NCBI GenBank assembly: GCA_963662235.1
Contig: OY759308.1
Location: forward strand, 182,109-246,108
DNA: 64,000 nucleotides
Direction of reading: 5' to 3'
Source of the DNA: Desulfobacterales bacterium
GTDB lineage: Bacteria > Desulfobacterota > Desulfobacteria > Desulfobacterales > G963662235
The translations under genes and the position numbers were made by a program. The notes under the pieces are model-generated. The model did not search any database and was not told the origin of the DNA. It worked only from the letters and a program-made list of their open reading frames with translations. Each line of letters opens with the position of its first letter. Within the stretch, counting starts at the first letter, position 1. Of this stretch, positions 27,301-47,731 are shown piece after piece.

Positions 27301-30300
27301 TTTCCGCTATTTTCTGAAGTTGTTGCTATCTTATTTTCTTGCTTGGTTTCTTTTTGTGTATTTGTTTTTTCATCACAATCTTCTTTTGAAATTTTACTGC
27401 CGTGAGCTTCAACGCACAATGCGTTATTTGTTATTGTTAAAACAGGTCCTTGACTACCTGAAATATTTTGCAACCATTTATAATAGACATTGTTATTTTG
27501 GATGGTTCCATTTTCAAGTTTTTTTAACATTAGAAAAGCAAAGTGAGAGCCAAAGCCTGCTGCTGTGTGAATGCCATATTCAAAGTCATCATACAGTTTT
27601 TTGTTTAGGCATAAATCTTTAAAATTATCTTCAATATTGATTAAATTTGCAATTGGAGGAATTTGCCCTTTTTGCAAAGCCTTAACAAGAACAGCGTCTT
27701 CAATTCCTGCCCCCAATGTGTGTCCTGTGTAGCCTTTGGTGTTTGCAATGGCTATTTGAGGATAATGATTTGGAAAAGCTTTTCTTAATGCATTTATCTC
27801 AGCATCTGCAGAACCTCCACGCTTTGGAGTGTAGGTTTCATGGGACATAAAAATTAGTTTTTTTGTGTAATAATCTTTATTTAGGTTATGGTTTTTTTCC
27901 ACTCTCTTAACGAATTTCTCCATTTGCACAGCCAAATGATTTACATCTATGTTGAAAGTGTGAAATCCGCTATTGCCAAGATATGAACCAAGTATTTCTG
28001 CCTGACCATTTAATCCTCTTTTTCTAAGGCACTCTTCTTTTTCTATAACAAGCCCAACTGCTCCTGCTCCAAGTATTGTTCCGTTTCTTTCTGCATCAAA
28101 AGGCTTTGCGGCTTCTTCGACTTCTTTTTTGATAGTTGCAGCTCCAAGCGATAAAAATGCAGAGCCAACCCATTGATTTTGAATGGAAGAAGTTACATTG
28201 TCCCCCCCAATAATTATAACTCTTTCACATCTTCCACATCGTATCCAATCGTTTGCTACTCCTATTGCTTGAGTTGTTGAAGCACAAGCTCCATTTAAAA
28301 GAATATTCGGACCTTGTGCTTTTATAAACCTTGCAAGATGAGCAGAGCCTAAAGGGCACATATTTGCTGCAAAATTTCTGTCAAACTGATACGAAGGATA
28401 TTCTTTGTTTCTTTCTTTAACTTTAAAAAACCAATTTGTGATTTGCTTTTTAATATTACTATCTTTAACCGATTCCATTAAATGATAATAAATATTTTCA
28501 AACTCTTCATATGGCTCTACATAGAACTTGTGATAATAAAATCTGTTCATCTCACCCATAACAGTTTCATTATTTGGAAAAGCAGAGCTGACAATTACAC
28601 CTGTTTTACCTTGCATTTCTTTTGGAAGAGCAAAACCCTCTGGAATTTGTTTTCCTAAAGAGGTTTGTTTGTAGTTCATAACAAGAGGAATGTTTGCATC
28701 TTTTAATGCTTCAATTCCTGCAGCAACAGCAAGTGCCATTGCACTGTCATATTTAAACTCAACGCCATATTCGTCATTTAAATCAAAAAAACCTAATTGC
28801 CCTGCAAGTTGGATAACATCTTCTTGATTTTCTATTTCAACAAATCTGGCATTGCCATCGGCTTGTTTAAAAAGTCTGTTTATCTTCTTTTCTGTTATTT
28901 TCTTTTTGTCGTCTTCTGAAATTGGTTCTATGAAGTTTGTGCCGTTTAATATCTTTTCAAAATTATCACTTGAAAAAACCTTTCTTGCTTTTCCAGGAAG
29001 ACCTATTGAAACACCCGAGATGACAATTTTGCCATCATAAAAATTATATTTTTCCATAGAGGCAAGAGCATCTTCTTTTTTGTGCTGTATGAACTCTTTA
29101 TATAAAACTTTATCTAACACTTCTTGATTTTGTTTTTTAAAATCTTCAAAAGCATGGCTCTTGATATATTTTTCATCTTTATCAAAAGAGAGTGTTTCTT
29201 TTTTTTCTTCAAAAGGGGTTTTGTGTATTTTATCTATATAGTTTAAAAAGTTATCAAAGCTTTTTAACTGACCAACTTTAACATCAACTGCAGGTATAGA
29301 ATCGTAATATGCTATATTGATATCTTTGAGAAGGGTTCCAAGAAGTTTATTTGGTCCAATTTCTAAAAAAAGACTTTTTTGAGCTTCATAAACATATTCT
29401 ATGCTTTTTATAAATTCCACAGGTGAGGCTATTTGTTTTGAGAGCAATTCTTTTACTTTTTTTATATCATTTGGATATGGTTTCCCTGTGACATTTGATA
29501 TGATTTTTGAATAATTTGCCGTGTTACTAAAAATATAATCATCAAGGTGTTGCTTCATTTTAAAAGCAGCATCATCAAAAAGATTAGAGTGAAATGCACC
29601 AGAGAGTTTAAGTTTTATAAAAGGTTTTTTTATCGATTTTAAAAAGTTGCAAAATTTGTCAATATTTTCTTTAGTTCCTGATATTGCTGTTTGTTTTTTA
29701 CTGTTTTTGTTTGCGATAAAAACTTCGATTGAGCTTTGTCTTATTAGTTTTTCGCTTTGTCTTTCATCAACAAACAGAACCATTATTTTGCCTTGTGTTT
29801 TGCTTGTGCACTCTTTCATTAAATCTGCTCGTTTTAAAACAAGAGACATAGAAGATTCAAAATCAAGTATGCCATTACAAAAAAGTGCTGTGTATTCTCC
29901 TATGCTATGACCTACAAAATAGTTTGGAATAATATTTTTAGTTTGCCTTAAATGCTCATAAATAGAAGCACTTGATAAAAATATTGAAGGTTGGGTATTT
30001 TCGGTAAGATTTATTTCATTATTGTCAGAAAACATTAAATCTAAAAGAGAATATCCTCGTGATTTTTTAAAAATCTCTTCGCCTTTATCCATTGTTGTGC
30101 GAATCAAAGGATATTCTTTATATAATTCTTGCATCATATAGGCAGATTGAGCTCCTTGCCCAGACAGTAAAATAATGATGTTAGATTTTGTGTGGTTTTG
30201 GTTTTTTGCAATATAAGGCTCGGTTGAAACTGCTTTTTTGGTTTTATCAAAATCTATTGTTTTTTGAAGAATAGGAGAAAAGATTTCTTCTTCTTGATTG

Positions 30301-33300
30301 TCTTTTTGCTCATTTTTTTTGCTTAGAAAGGCAGACATACTTCCTAAAACCATATGTCCGTGATTGCCACCAATTCCATTCACATTGCTTGCTAAATAAA
30401 AATTGTCTTCTATCTTTTTTAAATTTGGATTTGCTTTTAAAATAGAATTTTTTTCTACGATGGAGTTCTCTTTCGAATATGCAAAGTTTGGCAAAATAGC
30501 TTTATTCTTTGTCATAAGAAGTAATTTGTTTAGAACAACAGCAGGATTGGCCGCTTTAAAATATGCAAATTGTGATTTTGTGTTGCCGAAAAAAATGTCG
30601 TTTGGAAAACTTGTTTCAATTGCTTGTTTTTCGACTAAATCAAATAATGGGTTAGATACTCCAAAAACATCAATATATTTTATCTCATTTTTTTTTATAT
30701 TTATTTTTTCGTAACAAGTTTCAATTGCTTTGCTATATGCTTCTTCAGAAGGAGATAAAAGATGCTTTGGGACACTTGAAGAAAAAGAGATACCTTTTAT
30801 TTCACCAATGATATCAAGATTGTTTTCGCAAGCTTTTTTATAAGTTGTTAAAATTTGAACAGCAGCACCTTCTCCCATAACATATCCTTCTGCTCTTTTA
30901 TCAAAAAAATAGTTGTCGTGCGTACTCAAAAGAGAAAGCCTTTTAAAAGCTATAATAACAGCAGGATATAAATTTGCATCAACTCCTCCTGTTATTGCAA
31001 AATCGAGCTGTTTTGTTTTAAGGTTTTCCATGGCTGTTTCAAAAGCAAAGGATGAAGAAGCACAAGAAGCATCTATAACAAAATTTTTGCCATTACAGTT
31101 AAAAAAATTGGCAACTCTTCCAGATACAAGATTTGATAAAAGACCTGTTGTTGTGTCTTCGGTGGTTGGTGAAAATCTTTTTTTAAGATTTGTAAGAAGC
31201 TTGTCTGCTATAATGTTTTTGTTTTCGGCATCAAATTCTTTTATAAATTTTTCTATAAGAGGAAGCCTAACTCTTAAAATATTTTCCGATTGATGTGTCC
31301 CTGATATTGTTCCAAATATAACTCCAATATTATTTCCATATCCAAAAAAATCTTCCATTTTTGCTTGGGATATTGCCTCAGATGTTGCATCAAGTGCAAA
31401 TTTTTGTGCATTGTCTATAAACTTTGCAGTAAATGGTGGAATTTTATATTTTGTGTTATTAAATTTATAATCGTCTATAATTCCTGCTTTGATATTTGGA
31501 ATGTGATATCCAGAAAGTTTATCTTCTTTTGCATAATAGTCGTTATGGAATTTGGAAGAAGGCATTGTATCTGATATTGATGTTTTGCCACTTTTTAGCT
31601 TTTCCCAAAAATCAGAAGAATTTTTCACATTTGGTAAAAGAGTTCCCATTCCAACAGCAACAATTCTGTCTTCATTAAAATCGTAAGATAAATCATTAAA
31701 AATTTGTCTTCTTGTTTTTTTATAAGCATCGGTAAATTCTTCAATAATTGAATGATAGTTAATTCCACCAAAACCATATGAGCTTATTGCAGATGCAAGA
31801 GGCATGTTTTTATTCCATTCTTTTGCTTCTTCAATAATATAGAAGGGAGAATCTTGTAAGTTATGGCTTCTGCTTAATTCTTCAAAAAGACCATTTGGAG
31901 GGAGTGTTTTATTTTTTATTGCAAGGATTGCTTTTATAAGCCCTGCCATGCCAGCCCCACCAAGAAGATGCCCTATTTGTGACTTTATTGAACTTATTCC
32001 GATTTTATTATTTGATTGATTGTAAACAGCTTTAAGGGCTTCAATTTCTGTTATATCTCCCATAATTGTTGAAGTTCCGTGTGCTTCAATAAAATCAATA
32101 TTGTTTAAATCAAAATCGTCTCTTAAATTTTTGATACATCGTTTAAGAGCAAGAACTTGCCCATTTTGGTTTGGTGCAGCTATGGCTTTCCCTTTTCCAT
32201 CAGAGCTTGCACCTAATGCTTTTATTAAAGCATAAATTTTATCTTTGTCTCTTATGGCATCTTTTGCCCTTTTTAAGATAACAACTCCAGCTCCTTCTCC
32301 CATCACAAAACCACTTGCTCTTTTGTCAAAGGGGTATGAGCCTATGTTTGATAATGCTCCAAGTTTGCAAAAACCAACAAAGGGCTCTGGAGCAAGATGA
32401 GAATTGACTCCTCCAATAATTGCCAAATCGCTTTTCCCCGATAAGAGTTCTTTTATTCCACAATCTAAAGCTGCAAAGCTTGTTGCACAAGCTGCATCAA
32501 CTGTGTAGTTTATGCCTTCTGCTCCTAAGTGATGAGCAATTCTGCTTGCTTCTATGTTTAGTGCAACAGTATGAACAGCTTCATATTTTGAACCATCTGA
32601 AAATTTTTCTTTTAAATAGTTTTTCAATTCTTTCTTTTTTTCATCACTTAAAGATTGAAACTCGTCTATTTGGTCTAAATAATACAAGATTTCAGGATAG
32701 CTATATTTGAAATGCAAATTGTTGTTTGTTTCATTGCCAAGGCAGCTTGCAACGATAACAGAGGTGTTTTTTCTTAATTTTTTTTTAAGTTTTGTGTCTT
32801 TTTCAATTATCTTTGCATCAAGTGCTGCTTGGAGGGCTGCTTCTAAAACTAATTGTTGGCTTCTTGAAAGATTTTTTCCTTTATTTTCTTCATAGCCATA
32901 TTTTTTCTCGTCAAATGTAAAAACATTATCTTTTATTACGCCTGCAAGAGAGGTGTAGGTTTTGTCTTCTTTTTTTTTATCTTCATCATAAAAAAGGTGA
33001 AAGTTGCAAAAACGCTCACTGTTATCGTGATTTATATCTATAATTGAATATTTTTTATTTACTATGTTGTTCCAAAAGGCTTCTTTGTCTTTTGCATCTG
33101 GATAAATGCACCCAATTCCAACTATTGCTATTTCATCATTTATGATATTTTTTTCATTCGTAAGAGCTTCTAACGAATTTAGATTTTTGTGAAGGGATTC
33201 TTTGTTGTCAAAATAGTTTTGATGAAGCTCTTTTATAGGCACTGTATAATCTGAAAAAACAACAGAATCGCCTGCCATAAAGTTGCCTTTTTCAAATTGT

Positions 33301-35213
33301 TCTTTTTCGTTAAATTGCTTTAATTCTTTAAAAACATTGTTTTCAAAAATAGGCTGAAATCCTTTTGAGGCAATAAGTAGTGCCCCAATGTTGTCTTGTT
33401 CAAATTCTTTTTTCCTTTTGCCCAAGTCTATGTTGTTTCTGATTCTGTCGTTTTCTCTTTTTAATATATTTTGAGTAAAAGGTGTTTTTATAACTCTTGA
33501 GGGCAAACCAACAGAACTTCCGATTAAAGAAGTTTCTTTGTTTTCTAAAACAACTTTTTGATAAACTGGTTTTATGGCAAGAGATTCTAATATCTCTTTG
33601 GTTGCAAGATAGGCTGTGCCAACTTGAATTCCTATTTTAAAACCTTTTTCATAAAGAAAGGCACTCATTCCGCTTATGAAAAAAGAGGCTGATTTGGTAG
33701 ATATTCCTCCTGCAAAAATAAGAGTGCTTCTGTTAGGGGTTATTTGATTTTCTAAAATTGTTTCAATTGCAAGCTCCCATAGTGTGAAGCTGCTTAATGC
33801 TCCAATATGACCGCCTGCTTCTTTTCCTTCAAATATGAAATTTGTACACTCGTTTTTTACAGCATTTTTCAAAAATGATGGAGTTGGTGTGTGTAGATAG
33901 GTTTTAGTTCCAAGCTCTTCTAATTTTTTTACATTGGCAGGAGAGCCTGCTGCAAAGAGAGCAAAGGGGACTTTGTGTTTTTTTATTATTTTGATATGGC
34001 TTTCTAAAGTTGGATTTAAGGCTTCGATTCCTATCATACCTGCACCAAAAGATTTTAACTTTTCTTCGTTTTTACCTTCTGTAATAATTTTATCTGCCAA
34101 ATTTGAAGGCAAGTTTCCTAATGCAAAGAAAGGCAAAGCTCCATTTTCAAAAACAGATAAGGCAAAATTTGCATTATCGCTTATATTTGCCATAGGTCCT
34201 TGAATGAGTGGGTATTTTGTTTTGTGCTCTTTTGCCAGCGTGCTATTTTCTTGCAACGGGTCAAAATCGTCTATTAGTGCTAATTTTTCGCAAGTTTCGC
34301 TAAATAGATAATGGACTATATCTTTTAGCTTTTTTGATTTTTTTACAAAATGTTTTGCAAAAACAGCATCTTGTCCAAGATAGAAAAGGGATTGCAGGGG
34401 TTCTGTGGAATTATCATTTAATTTTTTTATATTTGATTTTATAACTTCATAAAAAGCATTTTTTGCATCAGGATTGCCAATTAGTTCTAATTCTTTGAGT
34501 TTAAGCTCTTTTGTGATTTTTGTTCCGGGCTTTGAAAAAAATCTGTAATTATACCCAAGGTTTTGTCCTAAAACTTCTGTGTTGTTGTCTTCTAAGTTTT
34601 CGATTAATTTTTTAAAATTTGAAGATAAAGGAGCTTCGTCTGCAAGAAAAAATTGAGAATCTAAAACAATTCCGCTTGCACCACTTGCAAAAATTCCTGC
34701 TGTTGTATGAATGCCAACTCCGCCTTGAACAAAAATTGGAAGTTTTGTTTTTTCTAAATAAGTTTGCATTAGCACAAAAGAAGAAAGACCAGCGCCCCTT
34801 CCTCCTGCCTCACTCCCTTTTATGATAAGAGCGTTTGGAGATATTTTGCCTAACTTTTTTTCAATTTCAATATCAATGGTTTCAATGAAAAAAGGATTTT
34901 TTATGTTTGCATCATCAAATCGCTCGATATCCTCTAATGAATCATAATAAAAAATTATGGCATCTAAATTTCTTATATTTTTTTCTTTTAAAAAATTTAT
35001 AACCTCTTTTTCTTTAAAATTTAATCTTAATCCAAAAAGATGATTTGCGTTTGAAAGCTTTGTAATTGTTTCTGTAATTTCATCACTATCTAAAAACTCA
35101 CAATCTAAAACAGGCAGTAAACCTGCATCATCAATGGCTCTAAAATATTTTTCATCAAAACAAAATGATAAACAAATTGCAGGTAATTTTGAATTTATCA
35201 CTCTTTTAAACAT
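24315..35213 (-). CDS. Single-polypeptide PUFA-synthase-like (secondary-lipid) type I FAS/PKS megasynthase: ER'-ER-KS-KS*(His-less)-AT-KS-ACP-ACP-KR-DH
   Basis: 3632 aa. Positions below were counted on the translation.
- NMO/PfaD-like domains: aa ~1-310 (IKGSEAGGRG, VQGGVGI) and aa ~333-560 (YPLIQGPMA, FEGKEAGGH, FAGGIS).
- KS1, aa ~693-1160: DAACATS (C909), EAHGTST, SQIGHLLG.
- KS2, aa ~1183-1625: DASCASS (C1384), but DVFGVSN and KSQFAYF replace the two His motifs.
- AT, aa ~1678-1965: GQGAQ, GHSIGE, GAFHS.
- KS3, aa ~2062-2565: GACAST, SHETYTP, GYTGHTLG.
- ACPs: serines in DLGIDSI at S2672 and S2775.
- KR, aa ~3063-3285: VTGGGSGIT, YTSAN.
- PKS-type DH, aa ~3340-3632: LKDHSKDDIPIFLG, DAMFQ. 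Confidence 0.85.
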   Translation of the reverse strand: MFKRVINSKLPAICLSFCFDEKYFRAIDDAGLLPVLDCEFLDSDEITETITKLSNANHLFGLRLNFKEKEVINFLKEKNIRNLDAIIFYYDSLEDIERFDDANIKNPFFIETIDIEIEKKLGKISPNALIIKGSEAGGRGAGLSSFVLMQTYLEKTKLPIFVQGGVGIHTTAGIFASGASGIVLDSQFFLADEAPLSSNFKKLIENLEDNNTEVLGQNLGYNYRFFSKPGTKITKELKLKELELIGNPDAKNAFYEVIKSNIKKLNDNSTEPLQSLFYLGQDAVFAKHFVKKSKKLKDIVHYLFSETCEKLALIDDFDPLQENSTLAKEHKTKYPLIQGPMANISDNANFALSVFENGALPFFALGNLPSNLADKIITEGKNEEKLKSFGAGMIGIEALNPTLESHIKIIKKHKVPFALFAAGSPANVKKLEELGTKTYLHTPTPSFLKNAVKNECTNFIFEGKEAGGHIGALSSFTLWELAIETILENQITPNRSTLIFAGGISTKSASFFISGMSAFLYEKGFKIGIQVGTAYLATKEILESLAIKPVYQKVVLENKETSLIGSSVGLPSRVIKTPFTQNILKRENDRIRNNIDLGKRKKEFEQDNIGALLIASKGFQPIFENNVFKELKQFNEKEQFEKGNFMAGDSVVFSDYTVPIKELHQNYFDNKESLHKNLNSLEALTNEKNIINDEIAIVGIGCIYPDAKDKEAFWNNIVNKKYSIIDINHDNSERFCNFHLFYDEDKKKEDKTYTSLAGVIKDNVFTFDEKKYGYEENKGKNLSRSQQLVLEAALQAALDAKIIEKDTKLKKKLRKNTSVIVASCLGNETNNNLHFKYSYPEILYYLDQIDEFQSLSDEKKKELKNYLKEKFSDGSKYEAVHTVALNIEASRIAHHLGAEGINYTVDAACATSFAALDCGIKELLSGKSDLAIIGGVNSHLAPEPFVGFCKLGALSNIGSYPFDKRASGFVMGEGAGVVILKRAKDAIRDKDKIYALIKALGASSDGKGKAIAAPNQNGQVLALKRCIKNLRDDFDLNNIDFIEAHGTSTIMGDITEIEALKAVYNQSNNKIGISSIKSQIGHLLGGAGMAGLIKAILAIKNKTLPPNGLFEELSRSHNLQDSPFYIIEEAKEWNKNMPLASAISSYGFGGINYHSIIEEFTDAYKKTRRQIFNDLSYDFNEDRIVAVGMGTLLPNVKNSSDFWEKLKSGKTSISDTMPSSKFHNDYYAKEDKLSGYHIPNIKAGIIDDYKFNNTKYKIPPFTAKFIDNAQKFALDATSEAISQAKMEDFFGYGNNIGVIFGTISGTHQSENILRVRLPLIEKFIKEFDAENKNIIADKLLTNLKKRFSPTTEDTTTGLLSNLVSGRVANFFNCNGKNFVIDASCASSSFAFETAMENLKTKQLDFAITGGVDANLYPAVIIAFKRLSLLSTHDNYFFDKRAEGYVMGEGAAVQILTTYKKACENNLDIIGEIKGISFSSSVPKHLLSPSEEAYSKAIETCYEKINIKKNEIKYIDVFGVSNPLFDLVEKQAIETSFPNDIFFGNTKSQFAYFKAANPAVVLNKLLLMTKNKAILPNFAYSKENSIVEKNSILKANPNLKKIEDNFYLASNVNGIGGNHGHMVLGSMSAFLSKKNEQKDNQEEEIFSPILQKTIDFDKTKKAVSTEPYIAKNQNHTKSNIIILLSGQGAQSAYMMQELYKEYPLIRTTMDKGEEIFKKSRGYSLLDLMFSDNNEINLTENTQPSIFLSSASIYEHLRQTKNIIPNYFVGHSIGEYTALFCNGILDFESSMSLVLKRADLMKECTSKTQGKIMVLFVDERQSEKLIRQSSIEVFIANKNSKKQTAISGTKENIDKFCNFLKSIKKPFIKLKLSGAFHSNLFDDAAFKMKQHLDDYIFSNTANYSKIISNVTGKPYPNDIKKVKELLSKQIASPVEFIKSIEYVYEAQKSLFLEIGPNKLLGTLLKDINIAYYDSIPAVDVKVGQLKSFDNFLNYIDKIHKTPFEEKKETLSFDKDEKYIKSHAFEDFKKQNQEVLDKVLYKEFIQHKKEDALASMEKYNFYDGKIVISGVSIGLPGKARKVFSSDNFEKILNGTNFIEPISEDDKKKITEKKINRLFKQADGNARFVEIENQEDVIQLAGQLGFFDLNDEYGVEFKYDSAMALAVAAGIEALKDANIPLVMNYKQTSLGKQIPEGFALPKEMQGKTGVIVSSAFPNNETVMGEMNRFYYHKFYVEPYEEFENIYYHLMESVKDSNIKKQITNWFFKVKERNKEYPSYQFDRNFAANMCPLGSAHLARFIKAQGPNILLNGACASTTQAIGVANDWIRCGRCERVIIIGGDNVTSSIQNQWVGSAFLSLGAATIKKEVEEAAKPFDAERNGTILGAGAVGLVIEKEECLRKRGLNGQAEILGSYLGNSGFHTFNIDVNHLAVQMEKFVKRVEKNHNLNKDYYTKKLIFMSHETYTPKRGGSADAEINALRKAFPNHYPQIAIANTKGYTGHTLGAGIEDAVLVKALQKGQIPPIANLINIEDNFKDLCLNKKLYDDFEYGIHTAAGFGSHFAFLMLKKLENGTIQNNNVYYKWLQNISGSQGPVLTITNNALCVEAHGSKISKEDCDEKTNTQKETKQENKIATTSENSGNQIETIKQIIAKQTGYETDMLEDDLDMEADLGIDSIKQVEIFGEIAEKFNFKVPEDLKLVELNTIKKLTDFIIAKTSSTQTLTSNEPKEVEQKKDTTTLKADENQIETIKQIIAKQTGYETDMLEDDLDMEADLGIDSIKQVEIFGEIAEKFNFKVPEDLKLVELNTIKKLTNFILNETSEKQEKIANTQQKEDERAQTDTQKNVKRFLIKPVTKKLEGKTKTLKNKTLLVSFDNYGFADEFAKKTDANIIEIGKNNFELFENKNNIQEELQKIKNSNIDGFIHFAPINYYFEKTQNPIKLSKAIKSFFLIVKTLQNSINKEDGIIASCAFNSVVIPYIEKNIDINPVFAGISGMLKSINKEFKNTSCKMVDFANSSNVEKTINLFINEIQTETNELEVAYKDGQRFVLKLEESKIQENTNIIKQNDTILVTGGGSGITFEILKNIGKEYKTKFIILGRSNIEEKKELQNIKDDKLISFVMQENPNMKPVEASRQAAKIKRAREVKKNIEELRSLNIDTIYKPVSVIDAKQLDEFASDIKNIDGIIHAAGVEESNFIEKKELDSFSKVFDTKILGAFNLLKSFANYRFFIAFSSVTAKFGNEGQTDYTSANDMLGKIVQKEASLNPSKQYKIYDWTAWNKIGMATKSSVEYVLKEKKISFLEPKDGIKFFLDDLLDDNIEAVFTGIDYEFDINRLLAQEKLMPFLDKISFIDENKAKFKRKLSLSYDLFLKDHSKDDIPIFLGATGIEAMAEAAFYLLNSKNKKLVAVSDFSIPYGIKILKEKDKEIEIEAVLNDNLCKCKITSFFQKKKIFNETLHYEGSFYFDNNKLPSKKIALPEFNKLQINDNLASLIYHPKRLFMEGLFKTIEEISHYDGKLLISKIMDKSDKEFFKNEKEPKFLSNVVIVDAMFQTGGIFEFLKTDMLVLPLKIANMKFYSYPKKNEEYFCITEKMSDNENTNTYKLILTDKSGNVFIEIDNFEMIKISKIDKKYSIKL
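26787..27303. repeat. Tandem duplication (309-bp period) encoding the two ACP domains
   Basis: 26787-26995 and 27096-27303 are nearly identical at the nucleotide level. The linkers between them differ. Confidence 0.9.
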
Positions 35214-35429
35214 AATCTTTTGTCCTTATAGTTTTAATTTATTTGCGTAGCTTCTTGCACGCCTATATTGCTTTGTTATTAAAGCAATAAAAATGCACTA
35301 ATCATTTTATGCAAGGTAAGATATTCATTTTTTGTACATTGGTCAAGATTTTTCATAAATGGCTTTTTTAATGGAGGATATAGCGATTGTAGAAAATATG
35401 TTCTTTGAAAAATATAAAGGTAAATTTGA

Positions 35430-35479
35430 AATGGAATTATCTGATAAGATCAAAAAGGGCAAAGAGAGGACTTGACCCC
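35430..35479 (+). mobile_element. Right-end fragment (50 bp) of the IS-like element, abutting the truncated recombinase gene
   Basis: AATGGAATTATCTGATAAGATCAAAAAGGGCAAAGAGAGGACTTGACCCC aligns with 40895-40953, including the terminal repeat. Confidence 0.75.
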
Positions 35480-35886
35480 ATTTATTGATTCTGAAAGAAT
35501 GGTAATAAATATAAAGGGTGCAAAGGGCATGAAAGATAGAATATCTTTGCTTTCGAAGCATTTGCTTGAATTATTACGAAATTACTTCAAAGCATATAAA
35601 CCTAAAAAATATCTCTTTGAAGGTCAAAATGGAGGTAAATATTTGCCAACCAGTGTGGCAAATATTTTAAAGAAAGCGGTACTGAAAGCTGGAATCTGTA
35701 AAACCGTGACTACCACATATGCTACGCCACAGTTTTGCAACTCATCTTCTTGAACAAGGCACTGATTTAAGATATATTCAGGATTTGTTGGGGCATAATA
35801 GTTCAAAAACGACTGAAATTTATACTCATGTATCAAAAAAGGCAATTGATAAGATTAGAAACCCAGTCAATGATTTTTTTGATTGA
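35480..35886 (+). pseudogene. Tyrosine recombinase (XerC/D-like), 5'-truncated and frameshifted C-terminal fragment
   Basis: ...IDSERMVINIKGAKGMKDRISLLSKHLLELLRNYFKAYKPKKYLFEGQNGGKYLPTSVANILKKAVLKAGI.KTVT / frameshift near 35710 / [56 protein letters not shown]. The catalytic-region motifs KDR, H.LRH, LLGH and IYTHV are present. Confidence 0.85.
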
Positions 35887-35980
35887 GGAGATCAAAATGA
35901 TAAAAGAAAAATATATACAATTGTGCTTAGCCCGCCAGTTTGGAGAAATAAACACAATAGAGTTTACACAATCGTTAGCG
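35887..35980 (+). other. attI-like junction, copy 1, ending in core site GTTAGCG (35974-35980)
   Basis: This 94-bp segment follows the recombinase stop and is duplicated at 42278-42371. Strong similarity between the copies falls off just past the GTTAG core. Confidence 0.6.
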
Positions 35981-36047
35981 CCAAGTATAGAAAAAACCGT
36001 GCAACAGTAAATAATAATTGAACCAATATCAGGTAATAAATAAACAA

Positions 36048-39000
36048 ATGAATATAGAATGGAATACATTACGAGCATTTAACGGCGATGTTAAAAATGG
36101 ATTTGAAGAACTTGTTTGTCAATTAGCAAGAGCAGAACAAATTTTAAACAAATCTAAATTCATTAGAGTTGCTGCACCTGACGGTGGAGTTGAAGCGTAT
36201 TGTATCCTTTCTGATAATACAGAATATGGTTGGCAAGCCAAGTTTTTTGCGTCAATGGGCGATTCACAATGGACGCAACTTGATAAATCATTTAAAACAG
36301 CCTTTGCAAAGCACCCTGATTTGGTTAAGTATTACATCTGTATTCCATTAGATAGACAAGATCCGAGAATAACAATTACAAAGGGAAACCGTAAAGGGCA
36401 ACAAGTGAATCACTTTATGGATAAGTGGAACGCGAAAGTAACAGAATGGGAAGCATTTTCAAAATCAAACAACAGAACTATTGAATTTGAATTTTGGGGT
36501 AATTCAGAAATCTTTGAACGCTTAAGCAAAAAAGAAAACGAAGGGAAACTTTACTATTGGTTTGGCAAGGAAGAATTTTCTGATGAATGGTTCAAACAAA
36601 AACTTGATGAGAATATTAAAAATCTTGACAAACGCTACACCCCTGAACTGAATTTTGATTTACCTATTGCCAAGATATTTGACGGAATTAGCAGAGATAC
36701 TTATTTCAACGACCAATTCAATTCATATTTTGATGATTTACTTAGGCATTTTAGAAAAGCTGTTACTCATATTAAAAAAGCAAAGGTAAAAAACTATATT
36801 GATAAAATCAATTCAATAGTCACAACATTCAGACAACAATGTGAGCAAATTGATTTTGCTGAAATAAGTATTATTGACAATATTGGTTTGATATCACTGT
36901 TAGAAAGTGTCAGGAAAATTATTAACGATTTAATTCAAAAATTATATGAAATTGATTTCGCACTCAAAAAAGAAAAGAAAGAAAAAAGTAAATACGAAAG
37001 CGATACAAATAAATTTGGTTGGGATATAGAGCATTTCAGAAAATTGAATAGTTCAATTTATGAGTTTATTAATTTTCTAAATAGCACAACGGTTCTTTTG
37101 TCAAATAACCCTTTTATGCTTTTAACAGGGGAAGCAGGAATTGGAAAATCACATTTACTTGCTGATGTTGCAGTAAAAAGAAATAAACGAAATCAATTCT
37201 CAATTTTATTGCTTGGTCAACATTTCACAGAGGAAGAACCTTGGAGTCAAATCAAAAAACAACTTCAATTAAATTGTGAAAGAGATACATTTCTTTCTTC
37301 GCTAAATGCAAAAGCTGAAACAACACAGAGCAGAATTTTAATTCTGATAGATGCAATAAATGAAGGAAAGGGAAAAGAGTTGTGGAAAAATTATATTGCA
37401 GGTTTCATTACCGCAGTAAAAAAATTTCCAAACATAGGTGTGGTTTTTAGTATTAGAACTTCTTATGAAAAACTTTTAATTCCTAATCCCTTAAAGGAAA
37501 AGGATGAAATTTTAAAAGTCATTCATTATGGTTTCTCATACCACGAATACGAAGCATCAAAACGTTTTTTTGAAAATTTTGGTATTAAACAACCAAGTAT
37601 TCCTTTGCTTCACCCTGAGTTTTCCAATCCGCTATTCCTAAAATTATTTTGCGAGGGATTAAGTAAAAAAGGATTGCACGTAATACCTGACGGTTACGAG
37701 GGCATTTCTACCGTCCTTAATTTTTATCTTGAAGCTATTAACAATACAGTTTCGGAAAAACACAAATTGCCTGAAAACTTAAATCTTACTCAAAAAGTTG
37801 TAAAAAAAATCGCAAGTCAAATTGCTGATACTGATAATACTTACATAAAGTTTGATAATGCGTATAGTACTGTTACTCAATTTGCCAAAGACAACTCAAT
37901 TACCGAACCTGCTCAATTTTTTGAGGATTTAATACGGGAAGGACTTCTTACTCAAAACGTGTATTGGGAAAAAGGTGGAAATCCTTTTAACGGTGTGTAT
38001 ATTTCGTATGAAAGATTCAGTGACCATTTGGTTTGTGCTTACTTGTTGGAAAATCATTTTGACAAAAAGAATCCAACAAGCTCTTTTGCTGTCGGTAATA
38101 AACTACATAGATTGCTTGAAGACCAATATAAATCATATTACAACAAAGGTATTATTGAGGCTCTTTCAATTCAATTACCTGAATTGGCAAACATAGAACT
38201 ATTTGAAGCTGCACCTCACGCAAAGGAATTTAAAATTGTGGCACAGGCATTTGTTGAAAGCATTATTTGGAGAAAAAAAGAAACAATCAATGAGAAACTA
38301 AAAGATTACATAAATGAAGTCGTAATTCAAAAACACGACTTGCATGATGATTTTATTAGCACAATTCTTTTAATTACATCACAGCCGAAACACTATTTCA
38401 ATAGCGATTTCCTTCACAATCATTTGATGAAATTCAGTATGCCTGATAGAGATTCTTGGTGGACACCTTTTATTCATCATCAATACCCAAGCTATTCAGA
38501 TGAAATCACATCTATTCAACGAATGATTGATTGGGCTTGGACAGATGATAAACGAGAGAATATTTCTGACGAATCAATTCGCTTAATGTGTCAAACTTTG
38601 TTTTGGTTTACAACAAGCACCAACAGGGCGTTAAGGGATTCTACAACAAAAGCAATAATTTGTCTTTTAGAAGAACGAATAAGCGTTTTGATACAACTCA
38701 TTAAAACATTTGAACAGGTTAATGACCCTTATGTTTTGCAACGAGTATTTGCGGTTGCGTTTGGTTGTGCTGTTAGAACGAGCAAAACTGAATCTTTAAA
38801 AGAATTAGGAAACTGCATTTATGAATCGGTTTTCAATACGAAAAAAGTAATTCCTGACATTTTGTTAAGGGATTACGCAAGAGGAATTGTTGACTACGCA
38901 GTTTTCAAAGGTATCAAGTTTGAGTTTAATTTAAAGAAAATAAAACCTCCTTTCAAAAGCGATTTGCCAACTTCATTTCCAAGTAATGAAGATATTGAGA

Positions 39001-40316
39001 AGTACGAATATGACTATAAAGCAAAAGAATTCAAAGATTATTATTGGAGTTTGAATTCAATTATTAGTTCTATGAAAACAAATGTCGGAGGTCAGATGTA
39101 TGGTGATTTTGGTAGATATACATTTGAAAGTGCCTTTGATGGTTGGAGAGTGAACGCACAGCTATTAAGCAATTTGGCAGTAAAATGGATTGTTGAGAAA
39201 TATGGCTATGATGTAGAAAAACATGGAAAGTTCGATAGAAAGATTCCATGTGATGGAAGACATTCTCATATGACAGAACGAATTGGGAAAAAATATCAAT
39301 GGATTGCTTTTTATGAATTGCTTGCAAGAGTTTCAGACAACATTCCGTTTTATGAATATTCATATAGCCAAAATGCAAAGCCTGTTGACTATAAAGGACC
39401 TTGGGAGCCGTATGTTAGAGATATTGACCCAACAATTACAATAAAAGGAAATCTTGAAAATAAAAATGAAAAATTTTGGTGGAATCTTGTTGATTACAAC
39501 AATTGGAACCTTCCAAACAAAGAATGGATTTTCAAAACTGATGACTTACCAAATCCTTTGGGTATGATAAGTGTGTTTGACAAAGACGGTATTGAATGGT
39601 TGGTACTTGAAATTCTCAAATCATGGACAGAACCTGCAGACATCGGAGAAGATAAATATGAAAATCCGCATAAAGATTTATGGTATCAAATTAAAAGTTA
39701 TATAACTAATAAAAAAGACCATAAAAAAATTTTGAAGTGGTCAAAAGAAAAAAACTTTATGGGGCGTTGGATGCCAGAATCGACAAATAGGTATCAAATG
39801 TTTAGCAGAGAATATTATTGGTCAGCAGCTAATGAAACATTTAGAGACCCTTATTATAGTGGTGAAAGTTGGTCTAAAATTCACGACAACGAAACACATC
39901 AATTAATTGGCAAAGTTGCCGTAACAACCATTGATTATTTGTGGGAAGAAGAATTTGACGCTTCAAAAGAATCTACGATTAGTTTTTACAAACCCACAGA
40001 AATTCTTTTTAATCTTCTTGATTTACAATATTCAAAAATTGAAGGTCAACTTTTGAATAAAGATGGACAAATGATTTGCTTTGACCCTTGTGCAACATAC
40101 CCAACACATTCGTGCCTTGTGGTAAGAAAAAACGACTTGGTTCAAAAATTAGAAGACAATAACTTGAATATTTTTTGGACTGTCTTAGGCGAAAAACTAA
40201 TTATTGGTGGAGACCATTCAAAACGTAACGAATGGATAGGGCGATTAAATATTTCAGGAGTTATACATTACGAAAAAGAATTACTAAAACATATTCCATA
40301 TTATATTGAAATATGA
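36048..40316 (+). CDS. Avs-like antiviral STAND NTPase with N-terminal Mrr-like PD-(D/E)XK nuclease domain (cassette 1)
   Basis: 1422 aa counted from the ATG at 36048. The N-terminal FEELVCQLARAE...VAAPDGGVEAYC...GWQAKFF fits the Mrr-cat pattern D..(Q/E)xK. The P-loop is LLTGEAGIGKSHLLAD (nt 37128-37151) and Walker B is ILILIDAINEG. A ~900-aa C-terminal region carries no recognisable repeats and is the putative sensor. Confidence 0.65.
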   Translation: MNIEWNTLRAFNGDVKNGFEELVCQLARAEQILNKSKFIRVAAPDGGVEAYCILSDNTEYGWQAKFFASMGDSQWTQLDKSFKTAFAKHPDLVKYYICIPLDRQDPRITITKGNRKGQQVNHFMDKWNAKVTEWEAFSKSNNRTIEFEFWGNSEIFERLSKKENEGKLYYWFGKEEFSDEWFKQKLDENIKNLDKRYTPELNFDLPIAKIFDGISRDTYFNDQFNSYFDDLLRHFRKAVTHIKKAKVKNYIDKINSIVTTFRQQCEQIDFAEISIIDNIGLISLLESVRKIINDLIQKLYEIDFALKKEKKEKSKYESDTNKFGWDIEHFRKLNSSIYEFINFLNSTTVLLSNNPFMLLTGEAGIGKSHLLADVAVKRNKRNQFSILLLGQHFTEEEPWSQIKKQLQLNCERDTFLSSLNAKAETTQSRILILIDAINEGKGKELWKNYIAGFITAVKKFPNIGVVFSIRTSYEKLLIPNPLKEKDEILKVIHYGFSYHEYEASKRFFENFGIKQPSIPLLHPEFSNPLFLKLFCEGLSKKGLHVIPDGYEGISTVLNFYLEAINNTVSEKHKLPENLNLTQKVVKKIASQIADTDNTYIKFDNAYSTVTQFAKDNSITEPAQFFEDLIREGLLTQNVYWEKGGNPFNGVYISYERFSDHLVCAYLLENHFDKKNPTSSFAVGNKLHRLLEDQYKSYYNKGIIEALSIQLPELANIELFEAAPHAKEFKIVAQAFVESIIWRKKETINEKLKDYINEVVIQKHDLHDDFISTILLITSQPKHYFNSDFLHNHLMKFSMPDRDSWWTPFIHHQYPSYSDEITSIQRMIDWAWTDDKRENISDESIRLMCQTLFWFTTSTNRALRDSTTKAIICLLEERISVLIQLIKTFEQVNDPYVLQRVFAVAFGCAVRTSKTESLKELGNCIYESVFNTKKVIPDILLRDYARGIVDYAVFKGIKFEFNLKKIKPPFKSDLPTSFPSNEDIEKYEYDYKAKEFKDYYWSLNSIISSMKTNVGGQMYGDFGRYTFESAFDGWRVNAQLLSNLAVKWIVEKYGYDVEKHGKFDRKIPCDGRHSHMTERIGKKYQWIAFYELLARVSDNIPFYEYSYSQNAKPVDYKGPWEPYVRDIDPTITIKGNLENKNEKFWWNLVDYNNWNLPNKEWIFKTDDLPNPLGMISVFDKDGIEWLVLEILKSWTEPADIGEDKYENPHKDLWYQIKSYITNKKDHKKILKWSKEKNFMGRWMPESTNRYQMFSREYYWSAANETFRDPYYSGESWSKIHDNETHQLIGKVAVTTIDYLWEEEFDASKESTISFYKPTEILFNLLDLQYSKIEGQLLNKDGQMICFDPCATYPTHSCLVVRKNDLVQKLEDNNLNIFWTVLGEKLIIGGDHSKRNEWIGRLNISGVIHYEKELLKHIPYYIEI

Positions 40317-40328
40317 AAGAAAACCAGG

Positions 40329-40459
40329 CGGTAACATCGTATATAAAACATTTGGCAGTCAGTGGGTTATTGAGCTTTCTACTCCGTATCAAAAGTACTT
40401 GTAATTTGACATGAAAGTGTTTCTAAATGCCAAACATTTCATATACGTAACCGTTAGAG
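40329..40459 (+). other. attC-like site of cassette 1 (131 bp)
   Basis: Layout:
- inverse core CGGTAAC (40329-35), then a 3-nt spacer;
- L'' GTATATAAAACATTTGGCA;
- L' TGCCAAACATTTCATATAC (40428-46);
- spacer GTAACC;
- core GTTAGAG (40453-59).
GGCGgTAAC is the reverse complement (one mismatch) of the cassette start GTTAgCGCC at 35974. Confidence 0.75.
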
Positions 40460-40466
40460 AAAAAAC

Positions 40467-40953
40467 AAATAAAGGGGTCAAGTCCTCTCTTGGCTCTTTA
40501 ACTGTTTTTTAATAAAAAATGACATGTCCAGACCATTAAGAATACAATATCCAGATGCATAGTATCACGTAATGAATCGTGGTAGATGAGGTGAAAAGAT
40601 ATTTTTGTCACCGGATGATTTTGAAGATATTCCTGAAACCAAAAACCTTGCACCGGATACTGATAAAATAATATACCATGTATGTAAAGCATACAATGTT
40701 GAAGAATCTATGCTGTATATATCCCGGAGAGGTTGCTTTAATGAACCAAGAAATGTCTGTATCTATTTAGTAAGATATTTAAGGGGTGATACTTTAAAGG
40801 AAACCGGAGTGCTTTTTGGAATTAAAAAACATAGCACTGTCAGCAGTATAATAGATAGGGTCAAGCTTAATATAAAATCCAGTCAAAAATTTAAAAAACG
40901 GATAATGGAATTATCTGATAAGATCAAAAAGGGTCAAGAGAGGACTTGACCTC
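40467..40953 (+). mobile_element. IS-like element, internally deleted non-autonomous copy with decayed Y1-HUH/DnaA_C-like transposase
   Basis: ~20-bp TIRs: GGGGTCAAGTCCTCTCTTGGC (40474-) and CAAGAGAGGACTTGACCTC (-40953). The ORF remnant 40524-40949 reads MSRPLRIQYPDA*YHVMNRGR*GEKIFLS. It is then fused directly to the C-terminal DnaA_C-like HTH part (...RNVCIYLVRYLRGDTLKETGVLFGIKKHSTVSSIIDRV...). Confidence 0.8.
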
Positions 40954-41063
40954 TTCAATTACAAATCATTTCAGCGGACAGCTAATGCTCGCCACTGGAT
41001 TTCACGTCATATGGGAATAAAAATATAGATTGACGATGCCTCCTATTTGTCTTATGTTTAATT

Positions 41064-41348
41064 ATGAAAATATTCAAATGGAATTCAGAAAAAAACGAAA
41101 TTCTTGCAACTAATAGAGGAATTACGTTTGATGAAATAGTTCAAAGAATAAAATCTGGAGCTAAAGTAATCGAAACAGATCATCCAAATAAAGAGAAATA
41201 TCCAAATCAAAAAATAATGATTGTCGATGTGGATGGATATGCTTACTTAGTTCCTTTTGTGATTGATGGTGATGAATACTTTCTTAAAACAATCATTCCT
41301 AGCAGGAAAGCAACAAAGAAATATCTTGAAGGTAAAAATAATGGATAA
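41064..41348 (+). CDS. brnT: BrnT-family toxin (DUF497)
   Basis: FKWNSEKNEILATNRGITFDEIV...YLVPFVIDGDEYFLKTIIPSRKATKKY matches the BrnT pattern (F.WD..KN...HGI.F.E ... RIISAR.AT..E...Y). Confidence 0.75.
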   Translation: MKIFKWNSEKNEILATNRGITFDEIVQRIKSGAKVIETDHPNKEKYPNQKIMIVDVDGYAYLVPFVIDGDEYFLKTIIPSRKATKKYLEGKNNG

Positions 41349-41622
41349 AAAACATAATAAAATAATTCTTGACGATTATGAACAGGAAATACTGGAAGCA
41401 TATGAAAACGGTAAGCTTAGTCCATCGAAATCAGAAACAGACTTTAAGACTATTGCCCAAAATACATTAAAAAAGAATCGAAAAATTAATATAAGAATTT
41501 CAGAAAATGACCTTTCGGCATTACAAAGGAAAGCTGCCAGAGAGGGAATTCCGTATCAAACTTTAATTGGTAGTATACTTCACAAATACGCAAGTGGATA
41601 TATTAAAGAAACTGTTTTTTAA
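41341..41622 (+). CDS. brnA: BrnA-like antitoxin (RHH/CopG-type C-terminus)
   Basis: The ATG at 41341 overlaps the brnT stop. ...KKNRKINIRISENDLSALQRKAAREGIPYQTLIGSILHKYASG is typical of BrnA-type antitoxins. Confidence 0.7.
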   Translation: MDKKHNKIILDDYEQEILEAYENGKLSPSKSETDFKTIAQNTLKKNRKINIRISENDLSALQRKAAREGIPYQTLIGSILHKYASGYIKETVF

Positions 41623-41646: not shown

Positions 41647-42015
41647 AAATAAAGGGGTCAAGTCCTCTCTTGGCTCTTTAGCTGTTTTTTAATAAAAAAT
41701 GATATGTCCAGACCATTAAGAATACAATATCCAGATGCCTGGTATCATGTAATAAATCGTGGTAGACGAGGTGAAAAGATATTTTTGTCAAAGGAAGATT
41801 ATCAATCTTTTATTATTCTTCTTAAAGAGCTTAACGAAGTATATAATGTTAAAATAGTAGCTTATTGCCTCATGGAAAACCATTACCACCTCCTGATAAA
41901 AACACCTGATGCAAATCTTTCCAGGGCAATGAGACATTTAAATGGTGTCTACACACAGCGATATAATAAACGTCACAATTATGATGGGCAGCTTTTTAGA
42001 GGGCGTTATAAATCT
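41647..42015 (+). pseudogene. IS-like element left part with the N-terminal half of the Y1-HUH transposase, truncated by a MITE
   Basis: The left TIR GGGGTCAAGTCCTCTCTTGGC is at 41654. The ORF from 41704 reads MSRPLRIQYPDAWYHVINRGRRGEKIF...CLMENHYHLLIKTPDANLSRAMRHLNGVYTQRYNKRHNYDGQLFRGRYKS (HUH motif HYH). It ends at the MITE boundary at 42016. Confidence 0.8.
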
Positions 42016-42211
42016 GAGACCTTTGAACAATGTCATTTTTGTTCAATTTGAGGGTAAAGTAGTATATTAATACTTCAAGCCCGAAAATCGGGCAAAACAT
42101 GGCAAGCCTTTTAATATAAGCTTTTTAAAAGAAAAAGTAATGTTTTGTTTTTAAAGTTCAAAGTTCAAATTTAACAAATTTTTTAAAAATTAGCGTTTGT
42201 TCAAAGGTCTC
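42016..42211 (+). mobile_element. MITE, subfamily 2, full copy (196 bp) at a rearrangement junction (no TSD)
   Basis: GAGACCTTTGAACAATG...GCGTTTGTTCAAAGGTCTC. The left flank is transposase coding sequence (aaatct). The right flank is the recombinase 3' end (atactc). Confidence 0.8.
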
Positions 42212-42371
42212 ATACTCATGTATCAAAAAAAGGCAATTGATAAGATTAGAAACCCAGTCGATGATTTTTTTGATTGAGGAGATCAAAATGATAAAAGAAA
42301 AATATATACAATTGTGCTTAGCCCACCAGTTTGGAGGAATAAACACAATAGAGGTTACACAATCGTTAGGG
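42212..42371 (+). pseudogene. Second copy of the recombinase 3' end (last ~20 codons, frameshifted) plus attI-like junction ending in core GTTAGGG (42365-42371)
   Basis: ATACTCATGTATCAAAAAAAGGCAATTGATAAGATTAGAAACCCAGTCGATGATTTTTTTGATTGA... aligns with 35822-35980. Strong similarity falls off just past the GTTAG core. Confidence 0.75.
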
Positions 42372-42414
42372 GCAAGGCAAGGAGCTGCATACAAGAAATG
42401 GGAAACTTACTATA

Positions 42415-45096: not shown

Positions 45097-45222
45097 CACT
45101 TTGTATAAGTAATGGCAGGCAAAGTGCTACATATCAAAATTTGTAGCCCGCTCAAACTGCGTGGCGGTTTGACAGGAAAGTACCACGCAATCTGCTACTA
45201 CTCATACAATTTACCGTTGGGC
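45091..45222 (+). other. attC-like site of cassette 3 (132 bp)
   Basis: Layout:
- inverse core CCCTAAC (45091-97), overlapping the TAA stop, then spacer ACT;
- L'' TTGTATAAGTA;
- L' TACTCATACAA;
- spacer TTTACC;
- core GTTGGGC (45216-22).
GCCCCTAAC is the exact reverse complement of the cassette start GTTAGGGGC at 42365. Confidence 0.8.
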
Positions 45223-45254
45223 ACAAGCAAAAAAACATACTGCAAAATTAGAGC

Positions 45255-46535: not shown

Positions 46536-46542
46536 TGCCAGT

Positions 46543-46673
46543 GCCCAACACGCAATAAAAAACATAGGGTGGAAAGTGCTAAATTTGAACGACATAACAT
46601 TTAAGAAACGGTTTGGTAACTTGATAGATAAGTGCTTCGAAGCGTCTTCCGTTTCTTATTGCCACCGTTAGTT
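46543..46673 (+). other. attC-like site of cassette 4 (131 bp)
   Basis: Layout:
- inverse core GCCCAAC (46543-49), then spacer ACG;
- L'' CAATAAAAAAC;
- L' GTTTCTTATTG;
- spacer CCACC;
- core GTTAGTT (46667-73).
GTGCCCAAC is the exact reverse complement of the cassette start GTTGGGCAC at 45216. Confidence 0.8.
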
Positions 46674-46694
46674 GTTATTAAAAAAACCGAACCA

Positions 46695-47703: not shown

Positions 47704-47731
47704 AAATAAAGGGGTCGAGTCCTCTCTTGAC
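47704..47731 (+). mobile_element. Left-end fragment of the IS-like element, immediately after the attC core site
   Basis: AAATAAAGGGGTCGAGTCCTCTCTTGAC matches the left ends at 40467 and 41647. Similarity is lost after ~28 nt. Confidence 0.65.

Follow-up and report, generated by a model that had tools for sequence, protein, structure and literature searches.

A cassette array in a Desulfobacterales bacterium is headed by remnants of a probable integron-like integrase without the I2 insertion

A stretch of 64,000 nucleotides (nt) from a Desulfobacterales bacterium (assembly GCA_963662235.1, contig OY759308.1, positions 182,109–246,108; hereafter the window, whose own coordinates are used below) contains an island of gene cassettes headed by a fragment of a tyrosine recombinase gene. 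We consider that this fragment probably derives from the integrase gene, now dead, of an integron-like platform in 'reverse' orientation, from a family that lacks the I2 insertion of the integron integrase IntI. In the mechanism that we propose, a Xer-like tyrosine recombinase of ~278 amino acids (aa), with the six catalytic residues and without I2, would be encoded just 5′ of its own attI-like site, situated ~30–210 nt past the stop codon, and would recombine this site, as double-stranded DNA, with the folded bottom strand of an attC hairpin, with the crossover at G/TT (the slash marks the crossover point). The window would hold two such platforms, or a single duplicated one, heading four cassettes: in copy A, the 5′ ~140 codons would have been lost where an IS200-like element ends, with a +1 frameshift arising afterwards, and copy B would have been reduced to 21 codons at the boundary of a miniature inverted-repeat transposable element (MITE). 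Because both integrase copies in the window are inactive, the array would be frozen unless an intact genomic copy acts in trans.

Results

A truncated recombinase gene precedes the first cassette

Remnant A (35483–35886, forward strand) corresponds to the C-terminal ~134 residues of a 278-aa tyrosine recombinase, as identified with Pfam and NCBIfam models (Phage_integrase, PF00589, E = 9.5e-28) and by its identity of 63–90% to homologues. One frame reads ...DSERMVINIKGAKGMKDR...KTVT and the following frame PHMLRHSF..., with a single extra base at ~35712 resulting in a +1 frameshift. With the loss of the N-terminal ~140 residues, both the core-binding domain and the first catalytic Arg are gone; the catalytic set is otherwise retained (hairpin Lys, His, Arg, His and Tyr). 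These data agree with the initial annotation, made from the sequence alone, which described a fragment of a tyrosine recombinase gene with its 5′ end cut and a frameshift. The stop codon (TGA, 35884–35886) is, as annotated, 88 nt 5′ of the first core site, GTTAGCG (35974–35980), and the remnant lies on the same strand as every cassette open reading frame (ORF), so that the gene does read towards the cassettes in the proposed 'reverse integron' orientation. A six-frame motif scan of the whole 64 kb found no second HxLRH, LLGH or YTH recombinase signature, in agreement with the claim that this is the sole recombinase sequence of the island.

The interval between motifs KDR and HMLRH of remnant A is 58 residues, as short as had been noted and devoid of the IntI insertion; IntI1 has ~42 more residues there. 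The label 'XerC/D-type' stood only in part, because the fragment certainly belongs to a tyrosine recombinase, but the hidden Markov model (HMM) and structure matches fit a XerA/IntI-like protein better than XerC/D. Remnant A reached 128 bits against the XerA model and 110 bits against the integron integrase model TIGR02249, the latter over its last 72 residues only.

Intact homologues lack the IntI insertion

Using a chimeric full-length consensus as query, we retrieved more than 100 intact proteins of ~278 aa, which are 74–84% identical to the consensus and whose hosts include Deferribacteraceae, Cloacimonetes, Desulfuromonas, Patescibacteria and members of the Fibrobacteres-Chlorobi-Bacteroidetes (FCB) group. 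Residues R134, the hairpin Lys K159/K162, H223, R226, H249 and Y258 (numbering of P0226, an intact member from Deferribacteraceae bacterium V6Fe1, complete genome CP063375.1) are invariant in 33 aligned intact members. When the fragment itself was the query, only proteins of 104–234 aa were listed, and many of these homologues were truncated copies. The resulting impression of a family of mini-recombinases was discarded as a ranking artefact, because intact proteins of 278 aa are abundant with the full-length query.

None of the 13 family members tested attained the cut-off of TIGR02249 (265 bits): four close homologues scored 205–223 bits, in two stretches that left profile positions ~177–241 unmatched, and nine array-heading proteins from Bacteroidota scored 192–228 bits, while the IntI1 control gave 506 bits in a single stretch. 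The family likewise failed model NF011946. The XerA model NF040815 (cut-off 220 bits) was passed by the four close homologues (226–245 bits) and by seven of the nine Bacteroidota proteins (range 206–245). HMM searches with intact homologues, which had been suggested with the initial annotation, have thus led to a family that fails TIGR02249 and mostly passes XerA.

The missing segment could be placed by several approaches. In an alignment with VchIntIA (PDB 2a3v), chain residues 207–244 have no counterpart in the family, and blastp comparison with IntI1 opened ~42 gap positions at ALPDALERKYP...RRHHM. The spacing from GxKGxKxR to HxLRH is 58–59 residues in 92 of 94 relatives, and the IntI signature RRHH...HxLRH appears neither in the 1.7 Mb of fetched loci nor in the window. 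An AlphaFold model (mean pLDDT, the predicted local distance difference test, of 83.9) shows no helix between strands 188–197 and helix 200–213, which is the position of I2. The best Foldseek matches in PDB were XerA 5hxy (E = 7e-17, 34% identity), VchIntIA 2a3v (28%) and XerA 4a8e, with XerD and XerH ranking lower; the C-terminal tail HV.K....[IV]R[NS]P[IL]D is common to the family and IntI1. From these comparisons, the family appears to lie between XerA and IntI. Three loci contain two paralogous family recombinases, in tandem or opposed (L097, 1343–3168; L151, 5817–8003; L144, 366–3772), which are 43–46% identical to P0226.

Gene, attI-like site and attC arrays are linked in the relatives

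We fetched at least 160 further relatives, of 49–77% identity and mostly from Bacteroidota; the genome and metagenome matches listed were mostly of 50–64% identity, and those above 70% are represented by loci L001–L006. In L001–L006 (seven close loci in all), conservation extends over ~90 nt past the stop codon, as far as ...ACACAAnCGTT, beyond which the sequences diverge. The first cassette of L003, a complete genome, opens with GTTGTGGTG and closes with CACCACAAC inside its attC. In most of the wider relatives, the gene is followed by an inverted repeat and, within a few bases of it, by a GTT situated 30–210 nt past the stop, after which the sequences diverge. Dozens of Bacteroidota loci lose similarity at this attI GTT and several contigs end exactly there; for instance, two Ekhidna genomes differ by a single mismatch over the 58 nt that lead to the GTT and are unrelated beyond it.

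Downstream arrays were examined by a cassette-chain test, in which, starting at the GTT, the reverse complement of GTT plus seven nt is located first, followed by the next GTT whose arms are complementary, from where the cycle begins again. Among 87 loci, this test recovered a total of 100 cassettes, with a maximum of 12 in one locus; 42 loci gave one cassette or more, 20 gave two or more and 10 gave three or more, whereas controls with two transformations gave 4 and 11 loci, with single links only. Likewise, an attC covariance model (E ≤ 1e-3; see below), searched on both strands of 962 kb upstream and 529 kb downstream of the genes, yielded 158 matches in 51 of 164 loci, 26 of them outside the training set, and every one of the 158 was on the strand of the recombinase and downstream of its stop codon. 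Intact homologues do therefore adjoin attC arrays in other genomes, a check that had been proposed with the initial annotation. The cultured flavobacterium Winogradskyella epiphytica CECT 7945 (Flavobacteriaceae), in which the 10 kb fetched contain no fewer than 10 cassettes, provides an example. Arrays are also carried by complete genomes, namely CP063375.1, the Ekhidna chromosomes OZ252014 and OZ244926 and the Prolixibacteraceae chromosome OY759982. Contigs end within 300 nt past the gene in 48 of the 164 loci and within 300 nt before it in six; this suggests that breaks past the gene are those that a hypervariable region would yield.

The idea that the integrase gene might be a cassette in its own right was not supported, since there is no attC-model match upstream of any recombinase gene. 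A simple scan for AAC...GTT arm complementarity had no specificity for attC in this AT-rich DNA. In L001, two IS110-family transposase genes (609–1700 and 8096–9187) are found upstream of a frameshifted integrase gene in a cassette-like region; the IS1111-attC group of the IS110 family targets attC sites.

The attI-like junction is duplicated in the window

Positions 35822–35985 and 42212–42376 are 96% identical, with six differences in ~165 positions. Similarity opens at ATACTCATGTATC, within the codons for IYTHVS, and closes just past GTTAG. The duplication of the recombinase 3′ end plus junction, pointed out in the initial annotation, is therefore real, comprising the last 65 nt of the gene and the 88-nt junction, which are found again at 42212–42371. 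A repeat comparison, addressing whether the duplicated junction could belong to a larger unrelated repeat, found the similarity to be bounded and no such larger repeat.

The putative attI-like site A (35887–35976, forward strand) consists of imperfect inverted repeats and ACACAAT repeats, is conserved in seven loci and has its predicted crossover at G35974/T35975. The second copy begins with recombinase remnant B (42213–42277, forward strand), which was recognised by its alignment with copy A within the 96% repeat and retains the last ~21 codons, with the stop at 42275–42277. It is followed by attI-like site B (42278–42367, forward strand; crossover at G42365/T42366), with one mismatch to copy A in 29 nt. 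Because the cassette starts complement their own R'' boxes (see below), both junction copies appear to be genuine insertion points with the crossover at G/TT and, since each of them heads its own cassette with a matching R'', sites A and B would be two attI sites of functional type and not pieces of a larger repeat. Tandem platforms also recur elsewhere, as L002 contains, in the middle of its array, a second and more divergent integrase remnant with an attI-like site. Such tandem platforms may have originated from a segmental duplication or from the arrival of a second platform.

A short ORF (MIKEKYIQLCLARQFGG INTIEFTQS...) with a GGAG ribosome-binding site begins ~10 nt after the integrase stop codon and crosses the attI crossover into the first cassette. 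It is present in the window at 35896–36010 and 42287–42440, and at the junctions of L002, L003, L004 and L006; its ATG is missing in L001 and L005, and we saw no coding constraint in it. This ORF is reminiscent of ORF-11 from the attI1 of class 1 integrons.

Four cassettes end in attC-like sites and carry mostly defence genes

Four sites with the attC pattern, each with a ...YAAC box on its 5′ side and, ~131 nt away, a GTT... box on its 3′ side, define four cassettes on the forward strand of the window. The first (35975–40459) contains an Avs2 gene (36048–40316; 1427 bits with the NCBIfam and 1614 bits with the PADLOC Avs2 models) and attC1 (40329–40459), which scores 92.8 bits with the covariance model, having been part of its training set, and whose bottom strand folds as a hairpin. 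The start of this cassette, GTTAGCGCC, and the R'' box of attC1, GGCGGTAAC, complement each other at 8 of 9 positions. The second (42366–45222), headed by copy B, codes for an 893-aa NB-ARC/NACHT ATPase (42415–45096; Pfam NB-ARC, 4e-11, and NACHT, 5.5e-07), without a PADLOC match, and ends in attC2 (45091–45222; 82.7 bits, bottom-strand hairpin z-score of −2.4); its start GTTAGGGGC and its R'' box GCCCCTAAC are complementary in 9 of 9 positions.

The third cassette (45217–46673) encodes a PD-(D/E)XK protein (45255–46535) recognised with Pfam and PADLOC as a PDC-S26 defence candidate, and also shows 9 of 9 complementary positions between its start, GTTGGGCAC, and the R'' box of attC3 (46543–46673; 73 bits), GTGCCCAAC. 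A single-sequence fold of 46534–46676 did not reveal a long hairpin in attC3 (z-score −0.01), whereas the other three sites of the window do fold. The fourth cassette (46668–47703) contains a gene for a NucC-like PD-DExK/DUF6602 protein (46695–47579; Pfam and PADLOC) and attC4 (47574–47703; 80.1 bits, hairpin z-score −3.4), with 10 of 12 complementary positions between its start GTTAGTTGTTAT and R'' box ACAACAGCTAAC. The cargo of the window is thus made up of three cassettes with matches to anti-phage defence and one with the NB-ARC/NACHT ATPase.

A BrnT/BrnA-like toxin-antitoxin pair (41064–41622, forward strand; Pfam BrnT_toxin and CopG/BrnA antitoxin) is located between IS200-like pieces, and the covariance model found no attC for it in 41064–41622. 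A scan of the window with Rfam, which does not contain an attC family, returned a tRNA as its only match and nothing in the island. Outside the island, the best AAC...GTT hairpin in a crude scan was at 19194–19300 (score 38), which has no match to the attC covariance model.

The attC fold is conserved and asymmetric between strands

The covariance model was built from an alignment (A5) of 54 attC sites of ~131 nt each. Their consensus fold comprises an R stem, an unpaired spacer and L stems, with compensatory changes in 15 of 18 pairs, and the AACA and CGTT ends are invariant in all 54 sites. RNAalifold returned no structure for a set of six hand-picked sites because their MAFFT alignment was poor. 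Unpaired positions are mostly 1x1 A.C oppositions and not one-sided bulges: oppositions of A and C in the top strand, corresponding to G.T wobbles on the bottom one, are conserved in 54, 51 and 31 of the 54 sites, at A5 columns 8/158, 17/145 and 22/139, and also occur at position 11 of the R''/R' flanks. Owing to these conserved G.T positions, the bottom strand has the more stable fold of the two in 46 of the 54 sites, by a mean of 1.96 kcal/mol (Wilcoxon p = 1.5e-6). This asymmetry is consistent with recombination of the folded bottom strand, since a site used purely as double-stranded DNA would have no reason to keep it. The I2 helix of IntI reads extrahelical bases of attC, and marks other than one-sided extrahelical bases would be coherent with an enzyme without this helix.

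Small mobile elements disrupted both integrase copies

The left edge of remnant A coincides with the right end of an IS200-like 3′ remnant (35359–35482, forward strand; identified by repeats, end motif and translation) that comprises the right-end hairpin (35461–35482) and the final 38 codons of a transposase combining Y1_Tnp and DnaA_C. This end is a direct repeat, with 89% identity between 35430–35486 and 40904–40960, and the IS200-like end motif occurs five times in the window, with none expected. The repeat at 40904–40960 is the right end of an internally deleted IS200-like copy (40467–40960, forward strand; repeats, Bac_DnaA_C and end motif) that keeps both end hairpins and whose left end is 7 nt past the GTTAGAG of attC1. 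A 5′ part (41647–42014, forward strand), with the left-end hairpin and codons 1 to ~104 of Y1_Tnp (E = 2e-14), stops at the MITE, and an isolated left-end hairpin (47704–47733, forward strand; repeat and end motif) directly past the GTTAGAG of attC4 forms the right end of the array. The MITE-like insertion (198 bp, 42015–42212) has perfect 16-bp terminal inverted repeats (TGAGACCTTTGAACAA; exact inverted copies at 42015–42030 and 42197–42212), truncates the IS200-like transposase gene and bounds remnant B on the left. Its terminal motif, (T)GAGACCTTTG(C/A)ACA(T/A), has 16 related copies in the window compared with 1.3 expected. The locus is, then, made up of two decayed platforms, or a single duplicated one, that small mobile elements of two kinds have scrambled.

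Other MITE-like copies are found at 2571, 7765, 11498, 14592/14775, 21277, 53706/53841, 55953/56250, 59588 and 62813, mostly in intergenic positions and several as inverted pairs 130–300 bp apart. IS200-like left-end hairpins begin 0–7 nt past the GTTAGAG R' box of two attC sites (40460–40496 and 47704–47733); the element may have the 3′ side of attC as its target, or else one of the junctions was copied by attC × attC recombination. In L002, a REP-like (repetitive extragenic palindromic) hairpin (CAGTCCTGCAGAGGCTGAGCCCCTGCAGGAC; 7990–8050, 11600–11640 and 15020–15060) is found where each of the two integrase remnants is cut at its 5′ end, and again past the final attC, a placement that parallels that of the IS200-like ends in the window.

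At the borders of the island, a 3632-aa multidomain ORF resembling polyketide or polyunsaturated fatty acid (PUFA) synthases (24315–35213, minus strand; domains called by eye) begins 130 nt from the left end. A sequence of at least 93 nt is common to ~21430–21530 and ~47870–47993, with an identical minus-strand translation of 31 residues, and the copy at ~47870–47993 sits in a REP-like inverted repeat (47751–47993) at the right border of the array. Four metagenome contigs (L166–L169) with an identical gene to that at 48178–48942 end 140–270 nt beyond it, on the array side, at the REP-like repeat.

Discussion

The platform described here resembles integrons, especially the chromosomal integrons with an inverted integrase gene from Treponema and other Spirochaetota, in that the recombinase gene adjoins attI and the co-oriented cassettes each end in an imperfect-hairpin attC (R'' ...AAC, R' GTT...) with an unpaired central spacer. 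They also share the crossover at G/TT and a cassette start complementary to its own R'' box; as in the inverted integron group, the gene reads towards the cassettes (PMC4889954, PMC9668308), and the cargo of anti-phage defence and toxin-antitoxin genes is like that of sedentary integrons (bioRxiv 10.1101/2024.07.02.601686). Unlike in integrons, however, the integrase has ~278 aa and no I2 (or patch III) insertion of ~40 residues, failing TIGR02249 and NF011946; its attC sites have conserved A.C (top strand) or G.T (bottom strand) positions that appear in the predicted fold as 1x1 oppositions instead of one-sided bulges; and its hosts are mostly Bacteroidota, a phylum reported to be nearly free of integrons (PMC9024848).

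The two-domain architecture, the length and the best HMM and structure matches are those of archaeal XerA and Xer resolvases (NF040815; PDB 5hxy and 4a8e). Differently from XerA, the window gene is a duplicated pseudogene and not a housekeeping gene, its family is highly similar across phyla, and what follows the gene is a variable cassette array (with attC matches in 51 of 164 loci), not a dif site. With four attC sites and no intI_Cterm protein, the window is also like the attC site clusters without an integron-integrase (CALIN) of IntegronFinder, although these are read as degraded integrons that have lost IntI whereas the window keeps a remnant of a cognate non-IntI integrase, of which intact versions exist elsewhere.

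XerC integrates the folded single-stranded genome of the CTX phage, and in doing so an enzyme without I2 uses a hairpin together with a double-stranded site. This precedent of CTX and of integrative mobile elements exploiting Xer (IMEX), discussed in PMC7790495, differs in that host XerCD and dif are used for one whole phage genome, without a cassette array, a dedicated integrase or attI. Among integron surveys, that of Cury et al. (2016) reported no more than four 'intermediate' recombinases, none of which had as many as three attC sites (PMC4889954), and IntegronFinder 2 detected hardly any integrons in Bacteroidetes (PMC9024848). For an 'integron-like' subgroup, Smyshlyaev et al. (2021) described the insertion only as 'not fully conserved' (PMC8138268), and Escudero et al. 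(2020) stressed the 'lack of intermediates' between Xer and IntI (PMC7790495). In the searchable full-text literature, with subscription literature outside this scope, we found no prior description of a family of integron-type integrases without I2.

The position of the gene, its linkage to attI-like and attC sites, and the missing insertion in its intact homologues support one of the two options raised in the initial annotation, that a non-IntI recombinase serviced the array; this recombinase would catalyse the attI × attC reaction, with attC probably used as a folded single strand. The other option was that the true intI has been lost and the Xer-like gene is a bystander, the array having been built by a canonical, I2-containing IntI that was lost or is encoded elsewhere. 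This would be in line with the standard view that the I2 insertion defines integron integrases (PMC4889954, PMC7790495) and with the pseudogene state of the window copy, because array maintenance does not need it; besides, the IntI signature scan took in the loci and the window and not whole genomes. Nevertheless, the same family is found in the same position and orientation, with a conserved site ending at G/TT, in dozens of unrelated genomes, the 158 attC matches are all downstream and on the strand of the gene, and no RRHH...HxLRH signature exists in the 1.7 Mb of loci or in the window, so that we regard a bystander role as quite improbable. It also seems improbable that the Xer-like enzyme acts at the conserved site on the entire island, moving or resolving it in double-stranded form in the manner of IMEX, and not on single cassettes. 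The protein certainly passes the XerA model, the tandem platforms of the window and L002 could be tandem integrations of whole elements, and the 74–84% identity across phyla suggests that the platform itself is mobile; yet variation begins at the G/TT of attI and proceeds cassette by cassette, with cassette starts complementary to their own R'' boxes, and no second attI-like site bounds the far ends of the arrays. Finally, the family could descend from IntI genes that lost I2 and their activity, leaving the arrays as relics, as might be thought from the C-terminal 72 residues scoring 110 bits against TIGR02249, the IntI-like tail common to the family and IntI1, and the many truncated copies. 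This is very unlikely in view of the invariant catalytic residues and strong purifying conservation in the 33 intact members, of the different arrays carried by close relatives with identical attI sites, and of the 48 loci, among 164, whose contigs break at attI, suggesting that populations are heterogeneous there.

Several points weigh against our preferred interpretation, that the fragment derives from the integrase of an integron-like platform without I2. In the accounts of Messier and Roy (2001) and MacDonald (2006) given in PMC7790495, canonical IntI is considered to need the I2 helix for capturing cassettes and for single-strand recombination, and Cury et al. (2016) judged proteins with PF00589 and without intI_Cterm not to be IntI even when beside attC (PMC4889954). 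A canonical intI acting in trans from elsewhere in the genomes would be beyond the 1.7 Mb of loci, plus the window, covered by the search for the IntI signature. The evidence from the 25 training loci is partly circular because the covariance model was trained on sites downstream of family genes, and ~40% of the loci with at least 1 kb downstream gave no attC-model match; the latter may have shorter attC classes, or be relatives doing something else. In addition, relatives of more than 70% identity are under-sampled, with L001–L006 being the only ones among the matches listed.

We lean, by a little, towards a broader reading in which these platforms represent a second widespread class of integrons, rich in Bacteroidota and present also in Deferribacterota, Cloacimonadota, Desulfobacterota and candidate phyla, whose integrases never had I2 or lost it, whose attC sites are marked by conserved G.T wobbles of the bottom strand, in place of classical extrahelical bases, and which integron finders have missed. 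If true, this would challenge the definition of integrons, whose integrases are defined and searched by means of I2, the insertion held to enable the capture of single-stranded cassettes. The family would then be an intermediate between Xer and IntI, or an independent solution, and the requirement for I2 could be tested with natural proteins. The distribution of integrons would change as well, with their presence in Bacteroidota, including cultured Flavobacteriaceae, a phylum reported as nearly integron-free; current finders would be missing these integrases and, at best, calling their arrays CALINs. Arrays with I2-less integrases would likewise constitute a further reservoir of mobile cassettes for anti-phage defence, exemplified in the window by Avs2, the NACHT ATPase, the PDC-S26 candidate and the NucC-like nuclease.

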